Shown: positions 19,321 through 57,707 of the stretch, in pieces
How the letters are laid out: each line of letters starts with the position of its first letter
How positions within the stretch are numbered: the stretch's first letter is position 1
Assembly: GCA_963741765.1 (NCBI GenBank)
Contig: CAVUJN010000031.1
Location: 6,606-70,605, forward strand
Origin: an uncultured beta proteobacterium
Lineage (GTDB): Bacteria > Pseudomonadota > Gammaproteobacteria > Burkholderiales > Rhodocyclaceae
DNA: 64,000 nt
Direction: 5' to 3'
Made by a program: the position numbers and the translations under genes
The notes under the pieces: model-generated
What the model saw: the letters and a program-made list of their open reading frames with translations, nothing else
Database searches by the model: none
What the model was told of the DNA's origin: nothing

Positions 19321-20208
19321 ATGAAAACGAATCCCCACCTCGCCGGCATCGGCTTCGGCCTGCTGGCCTATGGCATATGGGGCTTCTTCCCGCTGTTCTT
19401 CCACCAGTTGGCGCACGTCTCGCCGATGGACGTACTGTCCAACCGCGCAGTCTGGGCCTGTGTCTTCGTCGGCCTGCTGCTGACCCTGCGCGGCGGCTGG
19501 GCCAGGGTTGCCGGCGTCTTTCGCGCGCCTCGCCAGATCGCCATGCTGGCGCTGGCGGCGCTGCTGGTCGGCAGCAACTGGCTGGTCTTCCTGTGGGCGG
19601 TCGCCAACCAGCAGGTGGTGGCTTCCAGCCTCGGCTATTTCCTGACGCCGCTGGTCAATGTGCTGCTCGCTCTGGCCGTCCTCAAGGAGCGCCTGAACCG
19701 GCTCGAATGGGTTGCCGTCAGCCTCGCGGTCGCCGCCATCGCCAACGAGATCATCACGCTCGGCAGGCTGCCCTGGGTCTCGCTTTTCCTGGCCGCCACC
19801 TTCGGCACCTATGGTCTGGTGCGCAAGCAGGTACGGGTCGATGCGCTGTCCGGCCTGTGGCTGGAAACACTGGCCATGCTGCCGGTCTGTGGTCTCTACG
19901 CACTATGGCAGGCGCAGCAAGGCCACCAGGTTTTTGGCGGTCACGACCTGTTGACCGCAACATTGCTGATCGGCGCCGGCATTATCACCGCCTTGCCGCT
20001 GATCGCCTTTGCCGCCGCCACGCAGCGCCTGGATCTGGCAACCGTCGGCATGCTGATGTACATCAATCCGACACTGCAGTTTCTCACTGCGGTGTGGATT
20101 TTCGGAGAACCGATGCAGCCGGAACGGCTGATCAGCTTTGCCCTGATCTGGCTCGGCCTCTTCGTCTTCAGCTGGAGCATGTGGGGCAAATACCGGAATC
20201 GCGGATAA
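19321..20208 (+). CDS. rarD: EamA family transporter RarD
   Basis: AYGIWGFFPLFF, SLGYFLTPLVNV, TFGTYGLVRK, GMLMYINPTLQF. Confidence 0.93.
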   Translation: MKTNPHLAGIGFGLLAYGIWGFFPLFFHQLAHVSPMDVLSNRAVWACVFVGLLLTLRGGWARVAGVFRAPRQIAMLALAALLVGSNWLVFLWAVANQQVVASSLGYFLTPLVNVLLALAVLKERLNRLEWVAVSLAVAAIANEIITLGRLPWVSLFLAATFGTYGLVRKQVRVDALSGLWLETLAMLPVCGLYALWQAQQGHQVFGGHDLLTATLLIGAGIITALPLIAFAAATQRLDLATVGMLMYINPTLQFLTAVWIFGEPMQPERLISFALIWLGLFVFSWSMWGKYRNRG

Positions 20209-51736: not shown

Positions 51737-53359
51737 ATGACTGACTCTCTCGCCCCGCTTCGTCGCGGCATCCGACTGCCCCCGGCCGGCTGGGCCCTCG
51801 CCGGCATGCTGGCATTCTACGTTCTGGCCGGCCTGTTCGGCCGCGACCCGTGGAAAGGCGAGGATGCCATTCACATCGGCGTCGCCTGGAACATGCTGCA
51901 CTACAGCGACTGGCTGTCACCCGATCTCGCCGGGCGCTCGTTCCACGAACCGCCACTCTATTACTGGACGGCCGCCTTCACCGGCAAGGCACTCGGCTGG
52001 CTGTTGCCGCTGCACGAAGCGATCCGGCTGGCCAGTGGCGTCTGGGTCACACTGGCGCTGGCCGGACTTTACTATGCGGGCCGCGAACTTTATGGTCAGG
52101 CGAGCGCGGCCGCCAGCCCGCTTTTGCTCGCCGGCAGCGTCGGACTGCTGATCCACGCCCACGACGCACAGCCGATGCTGATCGCCATCGCCGCCTATAG
52201 CGGCGGCCTCGGCGCCCTGGCCGCCAGTGGGCGCCGCCCGTGGCTGGCCGGAACCTTCTATGGCCTGGCGCTGGCCGCTTGCCTGCTCGGTACCGGCATC
52301 GCCCCGACCCTGCCGCTACTGGCCATCGCACCGCTCGCCTGGTGGCTGGCGACTGACCGGCGCAAGGCCGCGCACGCCGTGCTCCTCGGCCTGGGCATCG
52401 GGCTGCTGCTGATCCTGCCATGGACGCTTCTGCTGCTGGCCATCGAGCCTTCACGCTTTCATGGCTGGCTGAACAACGAACTGGCGCCACTGCGTACCCC
52501 ATTCTCGTTTTCCGGGGCCGGGCGCTTTCTCGCCCTGCTTCCGTGGTTCGCCTTTCCGGCCCTGCCGCTGGCGGGCTGGACGCTGTGGTCGCGGCGCAAG
52601 GCACTGGGCGCCATGCCGCAGTTGCTGCCGCTGGCCTTCCTGCTGCTGACCCTGCTGCTGCTGGCGCTGGCCTACCGGCCGCGCGAAATTCCCGCCCTGC
52701 TGCTCCTGCCGCCGCTGGCCCTGCTCGCGACGCCGGGCGCGCTGATGCTGCGCCGCGGAGCGGCCAATGCCTTCGACTGGTTCGCCATGATGACTTTCAG
52801 TGTCTTCGTCGGCCTGGCCTGGGTAGCGTGGTCGGCGATGGCGCTCGGCTGGCCGGAACGTCTGGCCAAACGGGTCGTCGTACTGCGCCCCGGCTTCGTC
52901 GGGCACTTCGATATCTTCGCGTTCACCATCGGCGTACTGGCAACGATCTGGTGGATCTGGCTGATCCTGACCGCGCCGCGCTCGCCATATCGCGGCCTTA
53001 CCCACTGGACGCTAGGCTTCACCACCTTCCTGCTGATGGTCACCTCGATGGTTCTACCCTGGTTCGACTACGGCAAGACCTATCGCCCGGTTGCCGAGGC
53101 GATCGCCAGCGTCCTGCCCGCGGATCACGGATGCGTCGCCGAGCGCGGGGTCAGCGATACGCAGCGCGCCTCGTTCGCCTACTTTATCGAGCTCGAGCCA
53201 AAGGCATGGGAAACCGCCGCCGGCAGGCAATGCGACTGGCTGCTGGTGATGGGCAATTCGCGGCAGGAACTGGCAGCGCCGGACGATACCTGGACCAAGG
53301 CATGGGAAGGCAAGCGACCCGCCGAACGCAACGAAAAATTCCGCCTTTATCGGCGTTGA
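51737..53359 (+). CDS. ArnT/PMT-like (GT-C) membrane glycosyltransferase
   Basis: GRDPWKGED, EPPLYYW, about 12 TM helices, FDWF; usual position after rpmE in Betaproteobacteria. Confidence 0.82.
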   Translation: MTDSLAPLRRGIRLPPAGWALAGMLAFYVLAGLFGRDPWKGEDAIHIGVAWNMLHYSDWLSPDLAGRSFHEPPLYYWTAAFTGKALGWLLPLHEAIRLASGVWVTLALAGLYYAGRELYGQASAAASPLLLAGSVGLLIHAHDAQPMLIAIAAYSGGLGALAASGRRPWLAGTFYGLALAACLLGTGIAPTLPLLAIAPLAWWLATDRRKAAHAVLLGLGIGLLLILPWTLLLLAIEPSRFHGWLNNELAPLRTPFSFSGAGRFLALLPWFAFPALPLAGWTLWSRRKALGAMPQLLPLAFLLLTLLLLALAYRPREIPALLLLPPLALLATPGALMLRRGAANAFDWFAMMTFSVFVGLAWVAWSAMALGWPERLAKRVVVLRPGFVGHFDIFAFTIGVLATIWWIWLILTAPRSPYRGLTHWTLGFTTFLLMVTSMVLPWFDYGKTYRPVAEAIASVLPADHGCVAERGVSDTQRASFAYFIELEPKAWETAAGRQCDWLLVMGNSRQELAAPDDTWTKAWEGKRPAERNEKFRLYRR

Positions 53360-53399
53360 CCGCACCCGGCCCGAAGTGCACTCGGGGCGCCGCTGTCAC

Positions 53400-53945
53400 T
53401 CAGGATTTTAGAAAATGTTCGCGGTAATACTTGAGTTCGTCGATCGACTCGTAAATGTCGGCCAGCGCCGTATGCCGCCCTTTCTTCTTGAACCCCCTGT
53501 AGATTTCCGGCTGCCAGCGCTTGCACAACTCCTTGAGGGTGCTGACGTCGAGGTTACGGTAATGAAAGAAGGCTTCCAGCACGGGCATGTAGCGTGCCAT
53601 GAAGCGCCGGTCCTGCCCGATCGAGTTGCCGCACATCGGCGAATGCCCGGACGACGAGTATTTTTTCAGGAATTCCAGCGCCGCCTGTTCGACTGCGGCT
53701 TCGTCCAGCGTGGACGCTTTGACCTTGTCGATCAGCCCCGAGCGTCCGTGGGTTTTCTGGTTCCACTCGTCCATCCCGGCCAGGGTTTTGTCTGACTGAT
53801 GGACGACCCAGGCCGGCGACTCGGCAACCAGCTCAAGTTCGGAATTGGTCACCACCATCGCCATCTCGATAATCCTGTCGCCATCCGGGTTCAGGCCTGT
53901 CATTTCCATGTCCAGCCAGACGAGGTTGTTTGCGTTGCCTGTCAT
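53400..53945 (-). CDS. orn: Oligoribonuclease
   Basis: [51 protein letters not shown]. Confidence 0.98.
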
Positions 53946-54002
53946 ATAATTAGTCAAAATCCTTGAAAAACATCATTTTCTCATAGCTTGACCTCCTGAT
54001 CA

Positions 54003-55247
54003 GTGACCAACGACTTTAGCGTTTTCTTCCTTGCCGCTTTCACGCTGACGCTTGCCGGCCGCCTGTGGCTGACCCTGCGCCAGATCCGCTTCGTTGCCGC
54101 CCACCGCGCCGCCGTTCCGGACGGTTTCACCGAGCGCATTTCACTCGCAGCCCACCAAAAAGCGGCCGATTACACGGTCAACCGCAACAGACTTGAAATT
54201 CTGACCACGCTGGTCAACGCCGCGCTGCTTCTCGCCTTGACGCTCGGCGGCGGGCTCGCCTGGCTGCACGATTTCTGGAGCGGGCGCCTTGCCGGGCTGC
54301 CCTACGGTCTGGCGCTGATTTTCAGCGTGATGCTCGTCTCGGCAGTGATCGATCTGCCCTTTTCGCTCTACCGCCAGTTCGTCATCGAGGCCCGTTACGG
54401 CTTCAACCGCATGAACCTCGCACTCTTCGTCGGCGATCTCGTGAAGCATGCGCTCCTCGGCATCGTCATTGGCGCCCCAGTGATCCTTGCCGTGCTGTGG
54501 CTGATGGGGGCCATGGGCAGTGCCTGGTGGTTCTCGGTTTGGCTCTTCTGGTGTGCCTTCAACCTGTTGATTCTGTTCATTTATCCGACCTGGATCGCGC
54601 CGCTGTTCAACAAATTCGCGCCACTCGAGGATGGCGAGATGAAGTCGCGCATCGAGGCCCTGCTGACGCGCTGCGGCTTCACCTCGTCCGGTCTGTTCGT
54701 CATGGACGGCTCGAAGCGTTCGAGCCACGGCAACGCCTACTTCACCGGCTTCGGCAACAACAAGCGCATCGTCTTCTTCGACACCCTGCTCTCCCGCCTC
54801 GCACCACCGGAAATCGAAGCCGTATTAGCACACGAACTCGGACATTTCCGCCGCCGCCATGTCGTCAAGCGCATCGTTTTCATGTTCGCCACCGCTCTCG
54901 GCTTTCTCTGGCTGCTCGGCCAGTTGATCGATGCGCCGTGGTTCTATGCCGGCCTCGGCGTGTCGGCGCAGAGCACTGCGCTGGCCCTGATCCTGTTCTT
55001 TCTCGTGATCCCGGTATTCACCTTCCCGCTCAGCCCGCTGCTCAGCCGCCTGTCGCGCCAGCACGAATTCGAAGCCGACGCCTACGCGGCCGAGCACACG
55101 GCTGCCGCCGACCTCAGCCGGGCACTGGTCAAGCTCTACGAAGACAATGCGTTAACCCTGACGCCCGATCCGCTGCATTCGCTGTTCTACGATTCGCACC
55201 CGCCGGCCGCGGTGCGCATCGCCCGCTTGCAGGCGGCAGCCCGCTGA
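54003..55247 (+). CDS. M48 family (Ste24-like) metallopeptidase
   Basis: DGSKRSSHGNAYFTG, VLAHELGH, SRQHEFEADAYA, SHPP. Confidence 0.95.
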   Translation: MTNDFSVFFLAAFTLTLAGRLWLTLRQIRFVAAHRAAVPDGFTERISLAAHQKAADYTVNRNRLEILTTLVNAALLLALTLGGGLAWLHDFWSGRLAGLPYGLALIFSVMLVSAVIDLPFSLYRQFVIEARYGFNRMNLALFVGDLVKHALLGIVIGAPVILAVLWLMGAMGSAWWFSVWLFWCAFNLLILFIYPTWIAPLFNKFAPLEDGEMKSRIEALLTRCGFTSSGLFVMDGSKRSSHGNAYFTGFGNNKRIVFFDTLLSRLAPPEIEAVLAHELGHFRRRHVVKRIVFMFATALGFLWLLGQLIDAPWFYAGLGVSAQSTALALILFFLVIPVFTFPLSPLLSRLSRQHEFEADAYAAEHTAAADLSRALVKLYEDNALTLTPDPLHSLFYDSHPPAAVRIARLQAAAR

Positions 55248-56113
55248 TGCACGGCCGCGTCGTCGCCGCCCACGGTCGCCAGTACGTCGTCGAACTCGAC
55301 GACGGGACGCTGCTGCCGTGCTTCCCGCGCGGCAAGAAAAGCGAGGTGGCCTGCGGCGACCGTGTCGACATCCAGCGCACTTCCGACGACCAGGGCGTCA
55401 TCGAAGCCATTCAGCCGCGCACCAGCCTGCTTTACCGCTCCAACGAAATCAAGCAGAAGCTGATTGCCGCCAACGTCAACCAGGTCGTCATCGTCGTCGC
55501 CACCGAACCGGGCTTCTCCGACGAACTGGTGACACGCGCCCTGCTCGCCGTCGAGAGCGAGGAAATCGAGCCGCTGATCGTCCTCAACAAGTGCGACCTC
55601 GCCGACAAATTGCCGGCAGCACGCGCGCAGCTGGCGGTTTTCGCCAGCCTTGGCTACCGCATCGTCGAGCTCTCCGCCCGCGACCATGCCGAGGATCTGC
55701 GCCCCGAACTGCACGGCTATACCAGCGTGCTGGTCGGTCAATCCGGCATGGGCAAATCGACGCTGGTCAATGCCCTGCTCCCCGAAGCCCGGGCCGCAAC
55801 GCGCGAAATTTCGGCGGCACTCGATTCGGGCAAGCACACGACGACGCACGCGACGCTCTACCACCTGGACGCGTACAGCGAACTGATCGATTCACCGGGG
55901 CTGCAGGAATTCGGCCTCGGCCACCTCGACCGTCAGGAAATCGAATACGCTTTCCGCGAATTCCGCCCCTATCTCGGCAAGTGCCGCTTCCGTGACTGTC
56001 ACCACAACCGCGAGCCCGACTGTGCCTTGATCGCTGCGGTCAACGCCGGAAACATCGACAAACGGCGTTTCGCCATTTACCACCGCATCATGGGAACACC
56101 GCGCGCCGAGTAA
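55247..56113 (+). CDS. rsgA: Ribosome small subunit-dependent GTPase A
   Basis: NKCD, GQSGMGKSTLVN, GKHTTT, DSPG, CRFRDCHH.EPDC. Confidence 0.96.
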   Translation: MHGRVVAAHGRQYVVELDDGTLLPCFPRGKKSEVACGDRVDIQRTSDDQGVIEAIQPRTSLLYRSNEIKQKLIAANVNQVVIVVATEPGFSDELVTRALLAVESEEIEPLIVLNKCDLADKLPAARAQLAVFASLGYRIVELSARDHAEDLRPELHGYTSVLVGQSGMGKSTLVNALLPEARAATREISAALDSGKHTTTHATLYHLDAYSELIDSPGLQEFGLGHLDRQEIEYAFREFRPYLGKCRFRDCHHNREPDCALIAAVNAGNIDKRRFAIYHRIMGTPRAE

Positions 56114-56130
56114 ACGGCACCGCGCCAGGT

Positions 56131-56232
56131 TCAGGATTTACCGGCCAGCCAGGCGCATGCGCCCAACCCGGCGGCGCGACCAGTAGTCATGCAGGCAGTC
56201 AGCAGATAACCGCCGGTCGGCGCTTCCCAGTC
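56131..56232 (-). pseudogene. Orphan 3' end of a HI0933/TIGR03862-family flavoprotein gene, cut by the adjacent element
   Basis: Reads DWEAPTGGYLLTACMTTGRAAGLGACAWLAGKS*, the family's C-terminal motif. Upstream of DWEAP the expected GEM(L/I) is replaced by AT-rich non-coding sequence. Confidence 0.85.
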
Positions 56233-56300
56233 GTTATAGTGGTACGCACATATCGCTTGCGCGAAAATATTTCCGTGTATAGTGTAAAGGTATATTAAGT

Positions 56301-57707
56301 ATGCATTTATACATGACTGCAAATTATGGCTATAAGTTGGTTTTTCCCGACGCCCAGCTGCTCACCGAGGCGGGCTTTGAAAAAGTCGCGCACGTCCCAA
56401 GTATTTTTGATTCTCAGCCGGGATATGCTCGATTAGCCAGTCAGTTTCTAATTGACCGAGCGTTAGGTTCTTGGGATCCTAAGAATCGAGGCGCTCGTCT
56501 CAACCCCCAGCCACCGTCCAGGGTATCTATAAGAAACATCGGCTATTGGCTTTGCAACGCGCTTGAGTGGGCAGAAGTGCGTGATGACATCAACCTGATG
56601 ACGGCGGACTACACCACGGTGCTAATTGGCCGCTACCAACATGAAATGTTGAAGGGCATCTGGTCAGCCCATCACGAGCCGCTGAGTGCCGAAACGGTCA
56701 ATGCGCGGGTGCGAACAGCGCTGGATTTCCAAATGTGGGGTGCTGACAAGGGCCACCGTGAGCCCTTCATAATTCCCACTGTGATACGTAGCTATGTGAC
56801 TGGATCCCACACCAACAGCAAAAGCCACGAAGCCAAGACCGTCGAATCGCGCAGGGGCAAGGTAAAGGTCAACAAGCGAACACTATCCTTCCCAAGAGAC
56901 GACGAGATCAAGGCATGGCGACAGCGCGTGTATGAACAACTAATTGTTGGCGCAACCGAAGGGTTGATGGTTGACCACATCCTGAATACCGCGATCCGGC
57001 GCGAGGAACTAGCCTGCTGGCGTGTTGATACCTTGCCTCTCAATCCCCAGCACTGGAAGGTCATCAACCCCAGCCAGCCCGAGGCGGTGCAGCAGGTCGT
57101 TGTCGAAATTAGGTTCGGCACGAAGGGCAGAGAGTTTTACATCGACGAATACGGCGACAAGGTAGGGCCGCAGGGCAACATTCATGTGCCCCTCTGGCAC
57201 GCAAAGCGCATTCATGAATACAGGCAAAAGGAAAGGCTGCTCTCCCTCAAACGTGCCACCAAAGGGCTCCGCGACCCAGCAAAAGCGCGGCGCATCATCG
57301 AGCAGAGTGTCCATCTTTACATCAATGCCAAGACCGGCAAGCGCTATAACGGCTCCCAAATCTATGAATTCTGGACCAACGTGGAGGGACCTAGACACTG
57401 GAGTCCACACCTGGGGCGGGATTGGTGGGCTTGCCAATATTTGTGGCAAAAAATGAAGGAACACATCGCTCTGATCAAGCAGGTACAGGGAATTGCCAAT
57501 CCCCACTCTGATCATCCTCTAGTGCGCGCATTGCGGGACATCGCCCAGACCGTGATCCAGTTCGACATCCAGCCACAACTGCGTCATGCCAGCAGTCAGA
57601 CCACCGAAATATACCTGCAGTGGCTGTTTAACCAGCTGCGCGTGCCGCTCGATCTGACGCGCAAATGGCAGGAAGAGGACGAATCAACCGAAGGTGAAAA
57701 ACCGTGA
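56301..57707 (+). CDS. Tyrosine recombinase 1 (468 aa)
   Basis: TAIRREE (catalytic R), SPHLGRDW (HxxR), QLRHASSQTTEIY (H and Y nucleophile). Confidence 0.85.
   Translation: MHLYMTANYGYKLVFPDAQLLTEAGFEKVAHVPSIFDSQPGYARLASQFLIDRALGSWDPKNRGARLNPQPPSRVSIRNIGYWLCNALEWAEVRDDINLMTADYTTVLIGRYQHEMLKGIWSAHHEPLSAETVNARVRTALDFQMWGADKGHREPFIIPTVIRSYVTGSHTNSKSHEAKTVESRRGKVKVNKRTLSFPRDDEIKAWRQRVYEQLIVGATEGLMVDHILNTAIRREELACWRVDTLPLNPQHWKVINPSQPEAVQQVVVEIRFGTKGREFYIDEYGDKVGPQGNIHVPLWHAKRIHEYRQKERLLSLKRATKGLRDPAKARRIIEQSVHLYINAKTGKRYNGSQIYEFWTNVEGPRHWSPHLGRDWWACQYLWQKMKEHIALIKQVQGIANPHSDHPLVRALRDIAQTVIQFDIQPQLRHASSQTTEIYLQWLFNQLRVPLDLTRKWQEEDESTEGEKP

Follow-up and report, generated by a model that had tools for sequence, protein, structure and literature searches.

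The window, by which we mean the whole 64-kb stretch of DNA that was analysed, holds the truncated 3' end of a host flavoprotein gene beside rsgA, followed by an AT-rich sequence and a series of recombinase genes (Table 1). Minus-strand positions 56131-56232 comprise 99 nt (33 codons) and then a stop codon, and encode DWEAPTGGYLLTACMTTGRAAGLGACAWLAGKS. In profile searches this stub matched positions 340-375 of the 376-position NCBIfam model TIGR03862 (E = 2.9e-12) and the end of the Pfam family HI0933_like (E = 3.8e-4), in agreement with the initial annotation, which had recognized 33 remaining flavoprotein codons on this strand. The 5' part of the host gene is absent from the rest of the 64-kb window. 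A 63-residue open reading frame at 56131-56322 on the minus strand is an artefact that reads through from the left end of the inserted DNA into the stub; its NCBIfam alignment begins seven residues before the Asp codon only because ICA resembles the FCA of the true gene.

Table 1. Coordinates of the features described in the text (window positions unless a contig is named).
Feature	Position	Strand	Remarks
rsgA, flanking host gene	55247-56113	+	Convergent with the flavoprotein gene; matched by Pfam RsgA_GTPase (identical gene in contig L001)
Remnant 3' end of the host TIGR03862 flavoprotein gene	56131-56233	-	33 codons, stop codon and one base of the preceding Leu codon
CAGTCG, 6 bp of target adjoining the left end	56228-56233		Proposed crossover or spacer region (putative role)
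Left end of the element	56234-56300	+	Terminal TTATAGTG at 56234-56241; box ATATCGCTTGC at 56250-56260; second TATAGTG at 56278-56284
P1, tyrosine recombinase, 468 aa	56301-57707	+	IntA/GinA/TnpA position; catalytic residues assigned by eye
P2, recombinase-fold protein, 716 aa	57704-59854	+	Tfp-like position; without the first catalytic Arg and the His of HxxR
P3, large canonical tyrosine recombinase, 710 aa	59851-61983	+	IntB/TnpB position; R348, H474, R477, H501 and Y510 invariant
P4, accessory protein, 174 aa	61980-62504	+	Srap/GinD/TnpC position; N-terminal HTH and C-terminal coiled coil
P5, 164 aa	62505-62999	+	Kept only in the sub-group that also has the helicase (tblastn across loci)
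RecD2-like SF1B helicase, 724 aa in L001	62996-64000	+	Cut by the window end; TIGR01448, Pfam AAA_30 and UvrD_C_2
Carried TIGR03862 flavoprotein gene, complete, 428 aa	L001 19004-20287	+	134 nt after the helicase gene, beyond the window

A protein search with a related host flavoprotein identified an intact 414-residue flavoprotein (P0337) from an Azonexus metagenome-assembled genome, the last 33 residues of which are those of the stub. Its contig, L124, represents the empty site. The gene order is that of the window (orn, M48 peptidase, rsgA, flavoprotein), transglutaminase and ATP-grasp genes are also present, and the contig is 99.63% identical to window positions 52720-56233 over 3,514 nt. 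Beyond 56233 it continues into the intact flavoprotein gene (414 aa), which scores 571.5 bits against TIGR03862, for which the NCBIfam cut-off is 242.65 bits. With a slash marking the break, the sequence is TTCCCAGTCG/AGCATTTCGCC at the empty site and TTCCCAGTCG/TTATAGTGG in the window. Because the alignment with L124 stops exactly at 56233, the insertion is placed at 56233/56234, in the Leu codon before the Asp codon and one base away from the latter. The initial annotation had homology ending exactly at the Asp codon, which is right to within a single base, the host DNA extending one nucleotide further. The attachment site TTCC CAGTCG/AGCATTTC is present in L124 and in three more empty sites (L043, L044 and L047), all identical in sequence at the break point. 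In two close relatives of the host, some 790 nt separate rsgA from an intact flavoprotein gene (L045 5614-6402 and L046 1137-1925), compared with a gap of only about 20-35 nt in other host relatives.

The 67 nt that follow the junction have a GC content of 36%, compared with 62% in the host flank, and the AT-rich character described initially is thus evident. The heptamer TATAGTG does occur twice here, at 56235-56241 and 56278-56284, 43 nt apart; the whole 64-kb window holds three copies against 0.75 expected. Positions 56234-56300 are 100% identical in nine metagenome contigs. A terminal TTATNG and a CTTGC box about 20-27 nt further inward are conserved in 16 relatives that occupy other targets. 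The first TATAGTG belongs to this terminal motif, which is conserved across the family, while a second copy resembling TAT(A/C)GTG recurs about 45 nt inward in several relatives. It is plausible that the two copies are recombinase-binding sites, as had been suggested.

The recombinase module and the genes that follow

The genes for P1 to P4 overlap at their start and stop codons and the module is kept in 18 loci found in a genome scan. P1 matches no Pfam or NCBIfam model. A total of 243 homologues were found and, judged by eye, the residues invariant in their alignment fit the catalytic set R233/R234, H370, R373, H429 and Y438, lying in the motifs AIRREE, HLGR and RHAS...EIY. The AlphaFold model of P1 (pLDDT 48.7) was too poor and was left out of the fold search. 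P2 gives a weak Phage_integrase match at residues 489-538 together with weak matches to XerA and the HP1 integrase; its alignment (A4) shows SGWNP at the position expected for the box I arginine and SDFR instead of HxxR, with H525 and Y534 invariant. The profile of P3 contains HPHRFRKT...FGHK...TLHY, which aligns with the active site of the Tn1549 integrase. From motifs judged by eye, P1 and P3 are probably the catalytic recombinases.

P4 is conserved in all 14 of the aligned relatives. Three of these 14 give a sub-threshold match to DUF6262 (24.4 bits against a cut-off of 29), and there are further sub-threshold matches to HTH domains of the TetR_N type. P4 is predicted to be a small DNA-binding helper. 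In one sub-group only, P4 is followed by P5 and the RecD2-like helicase, the latter matching the RecD2 model TIGR01448 with an E value of 3e-70 but below the family cut-off.

Members of this group were found mostly in Betaproteobacteria (Azonexus, Dechloromonas, Zoogloea), with a few in Gammaproteobacteria such as Methylococcaceae and Pseudomonas. Viral contigs scanned with the P1 profile gave no match. Plasmids searched by tblastn with P1 and P3 yielded nothing beyond a degenerate relative carried by Ralstonia pRsT78, a distant relative from Microvirga, and matches to the integrases of Pseudomonas megaplasmids within the catalytic domain.

The gene content bears on one alternative explanation, namely a Tn7-like insertion in which a TnsD-type protein finds its site by reading an HI0933-family gene at the 3' end. 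The idea draws on Tn6230, which uses the yhiN locus, and on the relatedness of the target gene families. The initial annotation had cited yhiN as a reported attachment locus of Tn6230; the literature bears this out as to the locus, but the insertion lies between yhiN and yhiM, not inside yhiN (PMC10121019). At the present site the insertion is within the gene rather than downstream of it, and the first 11.4 kb of the element contain no transposase or Tns-type genes, the genes there being of the recombinase type. We attach next to no weight to a Tn7-like mechanism.

Ends of the element and recurrence at one nucleotide

A complementary junction was found in a different host. The 388-residue P0351, a relative of the host protein, follows the family as far as ...GVFCAGEML and then ends with YWYTERTTCRVSQFTLH and a stop codon. 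Its contig, L123, reads GGCGAGATGCT/GTACTG/GTATACGGAGCGCACTACTTGCCGAGTATCCCAATTC and ends 120 nt later, so that the right junction is host ...GAGATGCT/GTACTG/GTATACGG..ACTTGCCGAGTATCC. The host part stops at the nucleotide where the stub in the window begins. It had been proposed that the far end of the element may supply a replacement 3' end for the gene; this is contradicted by L123, in which the truncated gene acquires 17 unrelated codons and a stop. The element instead carries a whole second flavoprotein gene. The 5' part of a host gene lies at the complementary junction of L123, as had been anticipated, though the right end and host 5' half belonging to the window's own element are in no recovered contig. 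L123 is a single example of a right junction at the flavoprotein site, and its 120 nt of element DNA are too little for assignment to a sub-family by genes.

The box ACTTGCCGAGTATCC occurs at one other place among all loci compared, 4.3 kb to the right of a P1 homologue in Dechloromonas agitata DSM 13637 (L014; NZ_JARBJQ010000006.1). Here the ends split a small DMT-family gene at FMTFA/WYSHLK, with a left junction ATAC CAGGCG/TTATCGG and a right junction CGTATAC CGTGCG/AAAGTCAT. This 4.3-kb family member (L014 9897-14222) is degenerate, with P1 present and a truncated P2 fused to a transporter-like open reading frame, but both of its ends are intact, and the split gene lies downstream of folK; this member comes from an isolate genome and is a possible culturable reference for the two ends. 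The 15-nt right-end box used as a search query gave 35 chance matches only.

Read inward, the right end is GTATACG..(N9-10)..ACTTGCC and the left end is TTATNG..(N14-15)..(C/A)(G/A)CTTGC. Judged by sequence, the two ends form terminal inverted repeats that are imperfect. Immediately outside the left end stands CAGTCG, and the 6-bp segment separating the right end from host DNA is CAGTAC, with L123 as the right-hand partner; in L014 the corresponding pair is CAGGCG and CGTGCG. The comparison of attL with attR for a core repeat, which had been proposed, shows a resemblance within each 6-bp pair rather than an identity, and the two pairs are compatible with the footprint pattern of SE elements.

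All contigs with P1 or P5 break off close to a resolvase gene, no more than about 2 kb from the carried flavoprotein gene. The resolvase, of the serine type (L001 21001-21407), is encoded about 0.7-0.8 kb beyond the carried gene, and it is within the resolvase gene that most assemblies end (L003, L004, L005 and L039), which suggests that the cargo of the window's element holds a Tn3-type transposon or some other multi-copy sequence.

The left junction, by comparison, is well represented. P1 is unchanged on 22 metagenome contigs, and the junction is 100% identical in all six of those compared. The flanks in L004 and L005 share only 84.5-87.5% identity with that of the window, whereas over 7,767 nt of element the identity reaches 99.96%. 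L004, an occupied site, has a flank that is itself 98.4% identical to the empty site in L043; therefore one host lineage has both empty and occupied alleles. The junction CCCAGTC(G/C)/TTATA also stands next to different host tails in L030/L163-165, L033 and L167, where the elements (L163/L030, L033, L167) have 72-78% nucleotide identity to that of the window, measured over P3. In all, the break falls at the same nucleotide in five host lineages. The proposal of the initial annotation that DNA encoding the DWEAPTGG motif is a conserved protein-coding attachment site is thus borne out by the empty sites (L124 and L043) and by the relatives in L163/L030, L033 and L167, and the check that it suggested, whether homologous elements in other genomes insert at the same codon, comes out in its favour.

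Several rearrangements were noted at this locus. In L033 (JGI 3300044712 Ga0453684_0000623; positions 80-705 and 19344-19532) the first 88 nt of the left end and the host tail are inverted and lie 18.7 kb to the right of P1, while the remaining left end is preceded by AT-rich DNA and by hsdR, a type I restriction gene. GATG(G)AA / TTCCATC is common to the break points, and the same left arrangement occurs in the independent assemblies L034-L036. The arrangement is suggestive of an inversion, one of whose breaks fell within the left end. Among the cargo genes at L033 14941-19167 are two for ATPases, one OLD-like (TOPRIM/AAA_15) and one of the AAA_21 type, which, together with hsdR, look like anti-phage defence genes. 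In L166 (2816-3020, compared with L163 1434-9152) we observed a deletion derivative that retains a helicase remnant and the carried flavoprotein gene beside host genes but has lost P1-P4, P5, an IS (DDE_Tnp_1), the left end and some 26 codons of the stub. In effect, the element's copy of the gene has replaced that of the host.

Such events, together with the fact that a single junction is visible in the window, might be taken to mean that the stub is a decayed pseudogene left by an unrelated deletion or rearrangement, that the island integrated elsewhere and that their adjacency is coincidental. We consider this highly improbable, given that the break falls at the same nucleotide in five host lineages and abuts a terminal motif found throughout the family, and that the empty allele differs by the insertion only. 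The position of the junction, the empty sites, the recurrence in five lineages and the near-identity of the element across diverged hosts are direct observations, and we are confident that 56233/56234 is the attL of a site-specific, horizontally moving multi-tyrosine-recombinase element. Comparison of public-run contigs with the window junction and the empty site of L043 revealed no excision product, circle or read-level joint; the same contigs gave only the flavoprotein genes of other species or the empty form, and no right-junction loose end.

The relatives with other targets also break within coding sequences. Left junctions in comM were found at FDLP/IALG (L012 and L015), GVLF(L/M)/ (L024, L026 and L028) and LDRI/ (L023), and others are in the DMT gene (L014, L016, L017 and L018), in a radical SAM gene at GCEHGCI/ (L025) and in comEC (L029). 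Three sub-families of the group insert at three different conserved motifs of comM, which is also a landmark gene of unrelated Tn7-like resistance islands. Across the whole group, the elements appear to favour DNA that is constrained by encoding invariant protein motifs. DNA that encodes an invariant motif cannot drift, so that a target is guaranteed in many species.

The carried flavoprotein gene and a proposed mechanism

About 9 kb from its left end, and in the opposite orientation to the disrupted host gene, the element carries a flavoprotein gene of its own. The product scores 529.8 bits against TIGR03862 over profile positions 1-375, well above the cut-off given earlier, and is full length; it shares 58.5% amino-acid identity with the host protein. 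The gene has a uniform, element-like GC content. It follows the helicase in every flavoprotein-targeting relative seen (L011, L030-32, L033-37, L163-165 and L167), while relatives with other targets have no carried flavoprotein gene. The C-terminal tails, FASGL(T/A)AG(M/L)GVL(K/D)WLR, are specific to the element and unlike those of the hosts. The gene diverges broadly in step with P3, yet is better conserved (80-96% amino-acid identity compared with 68-80% for P3), and is intact in all five diverged elements. Targeted searches of the available sequence of the comM- and DMT-targeting relatives gave no copy of comM or the DMT gene inside them, and comparison of the left flanks of 20 relatives with their own interiors, for copies of other target genes, gave only noise.

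The C-terminus of the carried gene and the host stub form a 72-nt inverted repeat (72% identity) that starts at the Asp codon on both sides. This raises the possibility that the element has its right end within its own flavoprotein gene, at the Asp codon; only the 5' 1.14 kb of that gene would then be carried and the rest rebuilt from a host 3' end, and the 10.2-kb segment between the two inverted 3' ends would be the whole element. Similarity between related elements does end near the 3' end of the carried gene, and there is a precedent in a Tn554-family element with an internal att copy inside its target-gene-like gene. Nevertheless, the orientation is wrong, since a regenerating insertion would put the host 5' part beside P1 and not the 3' stub. 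The tails and GC content of the carried gene are those of the element and not of a host, and the right junction in L123 has a terminal repeat structure like that of the left end, not the 5' part of a flavoprotein gene. We regard a right end within the carried gene as improbable.

Somewhat less remote, but still unlikely, is the suggestion that the carried gene is a passenger, the relic of a past capture, or an internal landing pad for nesting elements. A 34-codon flavoprotein relic in L167 (9788-9889; about residues 330-363, with a stop codon), located between the helicase and the intact carried gene, hints at an older duplication or capture event and at past rearrangement, and the carried gene retains an intact CGACTG target core. 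On the other hand, five diverged elements keep the gene whole and more similar than P3, it has been kept even in the deletion derivative that lost mobility (L166), and no nested insertion in it was seen. That this target core has escaped insertion is a point that we count against our own best explanation. On balance, the carried gene is most likely a long-standing, selected part of the element that replaces the destroyed function of the host gene.

These observations lead us to propose a mechanism. The four-gene tyrosine-recombinase module P1-P4 would move the element, recognizing DNA that varies little, since in TIGR03862 flavoproteins the GEMxDWEAPTGG motif encoded by it is invariant. Insertion would occur in one orientation, the left end (TTATAG...CGCTTGC) joining CAGTCG and the last 33 codons and the right end (...GCAAGT...CGTATAC and the 6-bp spacer) joining the 5' part of the gene, possibly by way of a circular intermediate that carries the 6-bp spacer, as in Tn554 and SE elements. 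The expected right junction of the window's element would be ...CGTATAC followed by 6 bp (CAGTNN-like) and AGCATTTCGCCGGC. Insertion severs the C-terminal conserved motif of the host gene, and the carried copy would most likely restore the lost function; the insertion would therefore cost the host little.

An intact copy of the disrupted gene within an element has so far been noted in one staphylococcal transposon, and the target copy described here suggests that this is a recurrent strategy by which an element can settle in a conserved gene and leave its host unharmed. The locus is a clean natural experiment: near-identical hosts differ in having the site empty or occupied, and hosts that have diverged share one and the same element at one nucleotide position. 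With its ends and attB defined, the recombination system is open to direct testing.

Relation to known element classes

Multi-tyrosine-recombinase elements (SEs, GInts and Tn554) are poorly understood movers of resistance and defence genes. SEs are strand-biased circularizing integrative elements, in which recombination of attL with attR yields a circle but no empty site and, as in Tn554, 6 bp from the left flank of the donor travel with the element. The core gene order at their left end, intA-tfp-intB-srap, is the same as that observed here, with P1 and P3 displaying R-H-R-H-Y, P2 incomplete, and P4 combining an HTH with a coiled coil. SEs are likewise target-specific, with imperfect terminal inverted repeats and 6 bp at the left end that resemble 6 bp at the right. 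The SE survey, whose criterion was sequence homology of Tfp and Srap, found none outside Gammaproteobacteria, whereas the hosts here are mostly Betaproteobacteria, and the present sub-group adds P5, the RecD2-like helicase and the copy of the target gene. Against the proteins of SE-Pda04Ya311 (pAQU1; L161), the sole reference SE, the P1-P4 profiles gave no significant match, with hhalign probabilities of 0.2-2.5% and hmmsearch scores below 10 bits.

GInts (ginABCD) similarly possess three integrase-like genes and a small helix-loop-helix-type gene in a 5' operon that precedes variable cargo (PMC5385486). They are site-specific, often within or at the end of genes, have imperfect flanking repeats and are found in Betaproteobacteria and Gammaproteobacteria (PMC5385486). 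Their structure is tripartite, with the recombinase operon, the variable cargo and a short AT-rich 3' end, and they have imperfect direct repeats of 10-11 nt. Of this plan, the operon and variable cargo were seen here, the 3' end being known from the 120 nt of L123 and the degenerate L014 only. In GInts, GinA and GinB have RHRHY and the protein that lacks the first Arg is the third gene product (GinC), whereas here it is the second, and the proteins of 468, 716, 710 and 174 residues compare with 401, 437, 543 and 132 residues in E. coli Sakai. The P1-P4 profiles matched ECs_3509-3512 of that strain (L162), the sole reference GInt, with at most 8.2 bits in hmmsearch, and only at the catalytic motif. 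The few segments that align with the reference SE and GInt proteins are the catalytic boxes and the HTH, at collinear positions.

The Tn554 family, including Tn553 and 'Tn552-II' (PMC12486829), resembles the present element in pairing a large tyrosine recombinase with a smaller one, in the TnpC-type protein that accompanies them and in its orientation-specific insertion into coding sequence; it takes along a spacer of 6-7 bp, as is proposed here. DUF6262 proteins accompany its recombinase pairs, the match of P4 to this family being sub-threshold. It differs in having Firmicutes hosts and no third recombinase-fold protein, the counterpart here being the 716-residue P2. In Tn552-II there is a target-gene-like (tgl) gene, a homologue of the gene that this transposon targets, and the authors' proposal is that it rescues the disrupted function (PMC12486829); the internal att copies of Tn552-II are direct repeats, whereas our carried gene is inverted relative to the disrupted host gene.

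Two other classes were considered and rejected. Tn6230 shares with the present element an HI0933-family flavoprotein gene as its landmark, but it inserts between yhiN and yhiM with the gene left intact (PMC10121019) and relies on a heteromeric transposase, in contrast to the tyrosine recombinases described here. Membership of the Tn7-like group was rejected on account of the insertion inside the gene and the absence of TnsA/B/C/D-type genes among the genes in 11.4 kb. RIT elements have three recombinases of about 300-400 residues between inverted repeats and no fourth gene, whereas here the recombinase-type proteins have 468, 716 and 710 residues and a fourth gene is conserved.

A literature search found no published description of the P1-P4 element family. 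By its architecture, and with one reference SE and one reference GInt compared, the element is placed in the SE/GInt/Tn554 class but outside any named family. Tentatively, and with slightly less than even confidence in the combined proposal, we suggest that a further lineage of the SE/GInt class, the third and so far unnamed, may be represented by P1-P4 and have its centre in Betaproteobacteria. Each of its sub-families would have been retargeted to motif-coding DNA, namely the flavoprotein GEMxDWEAPTGG, three comM motifs, the DMT FMTFAWY, the CxxxCxxC region of radical SAM proteins and comEC, and the flavoprotein sub-family would offset the damage with a working copy of its target, possibly also an internal docking site.
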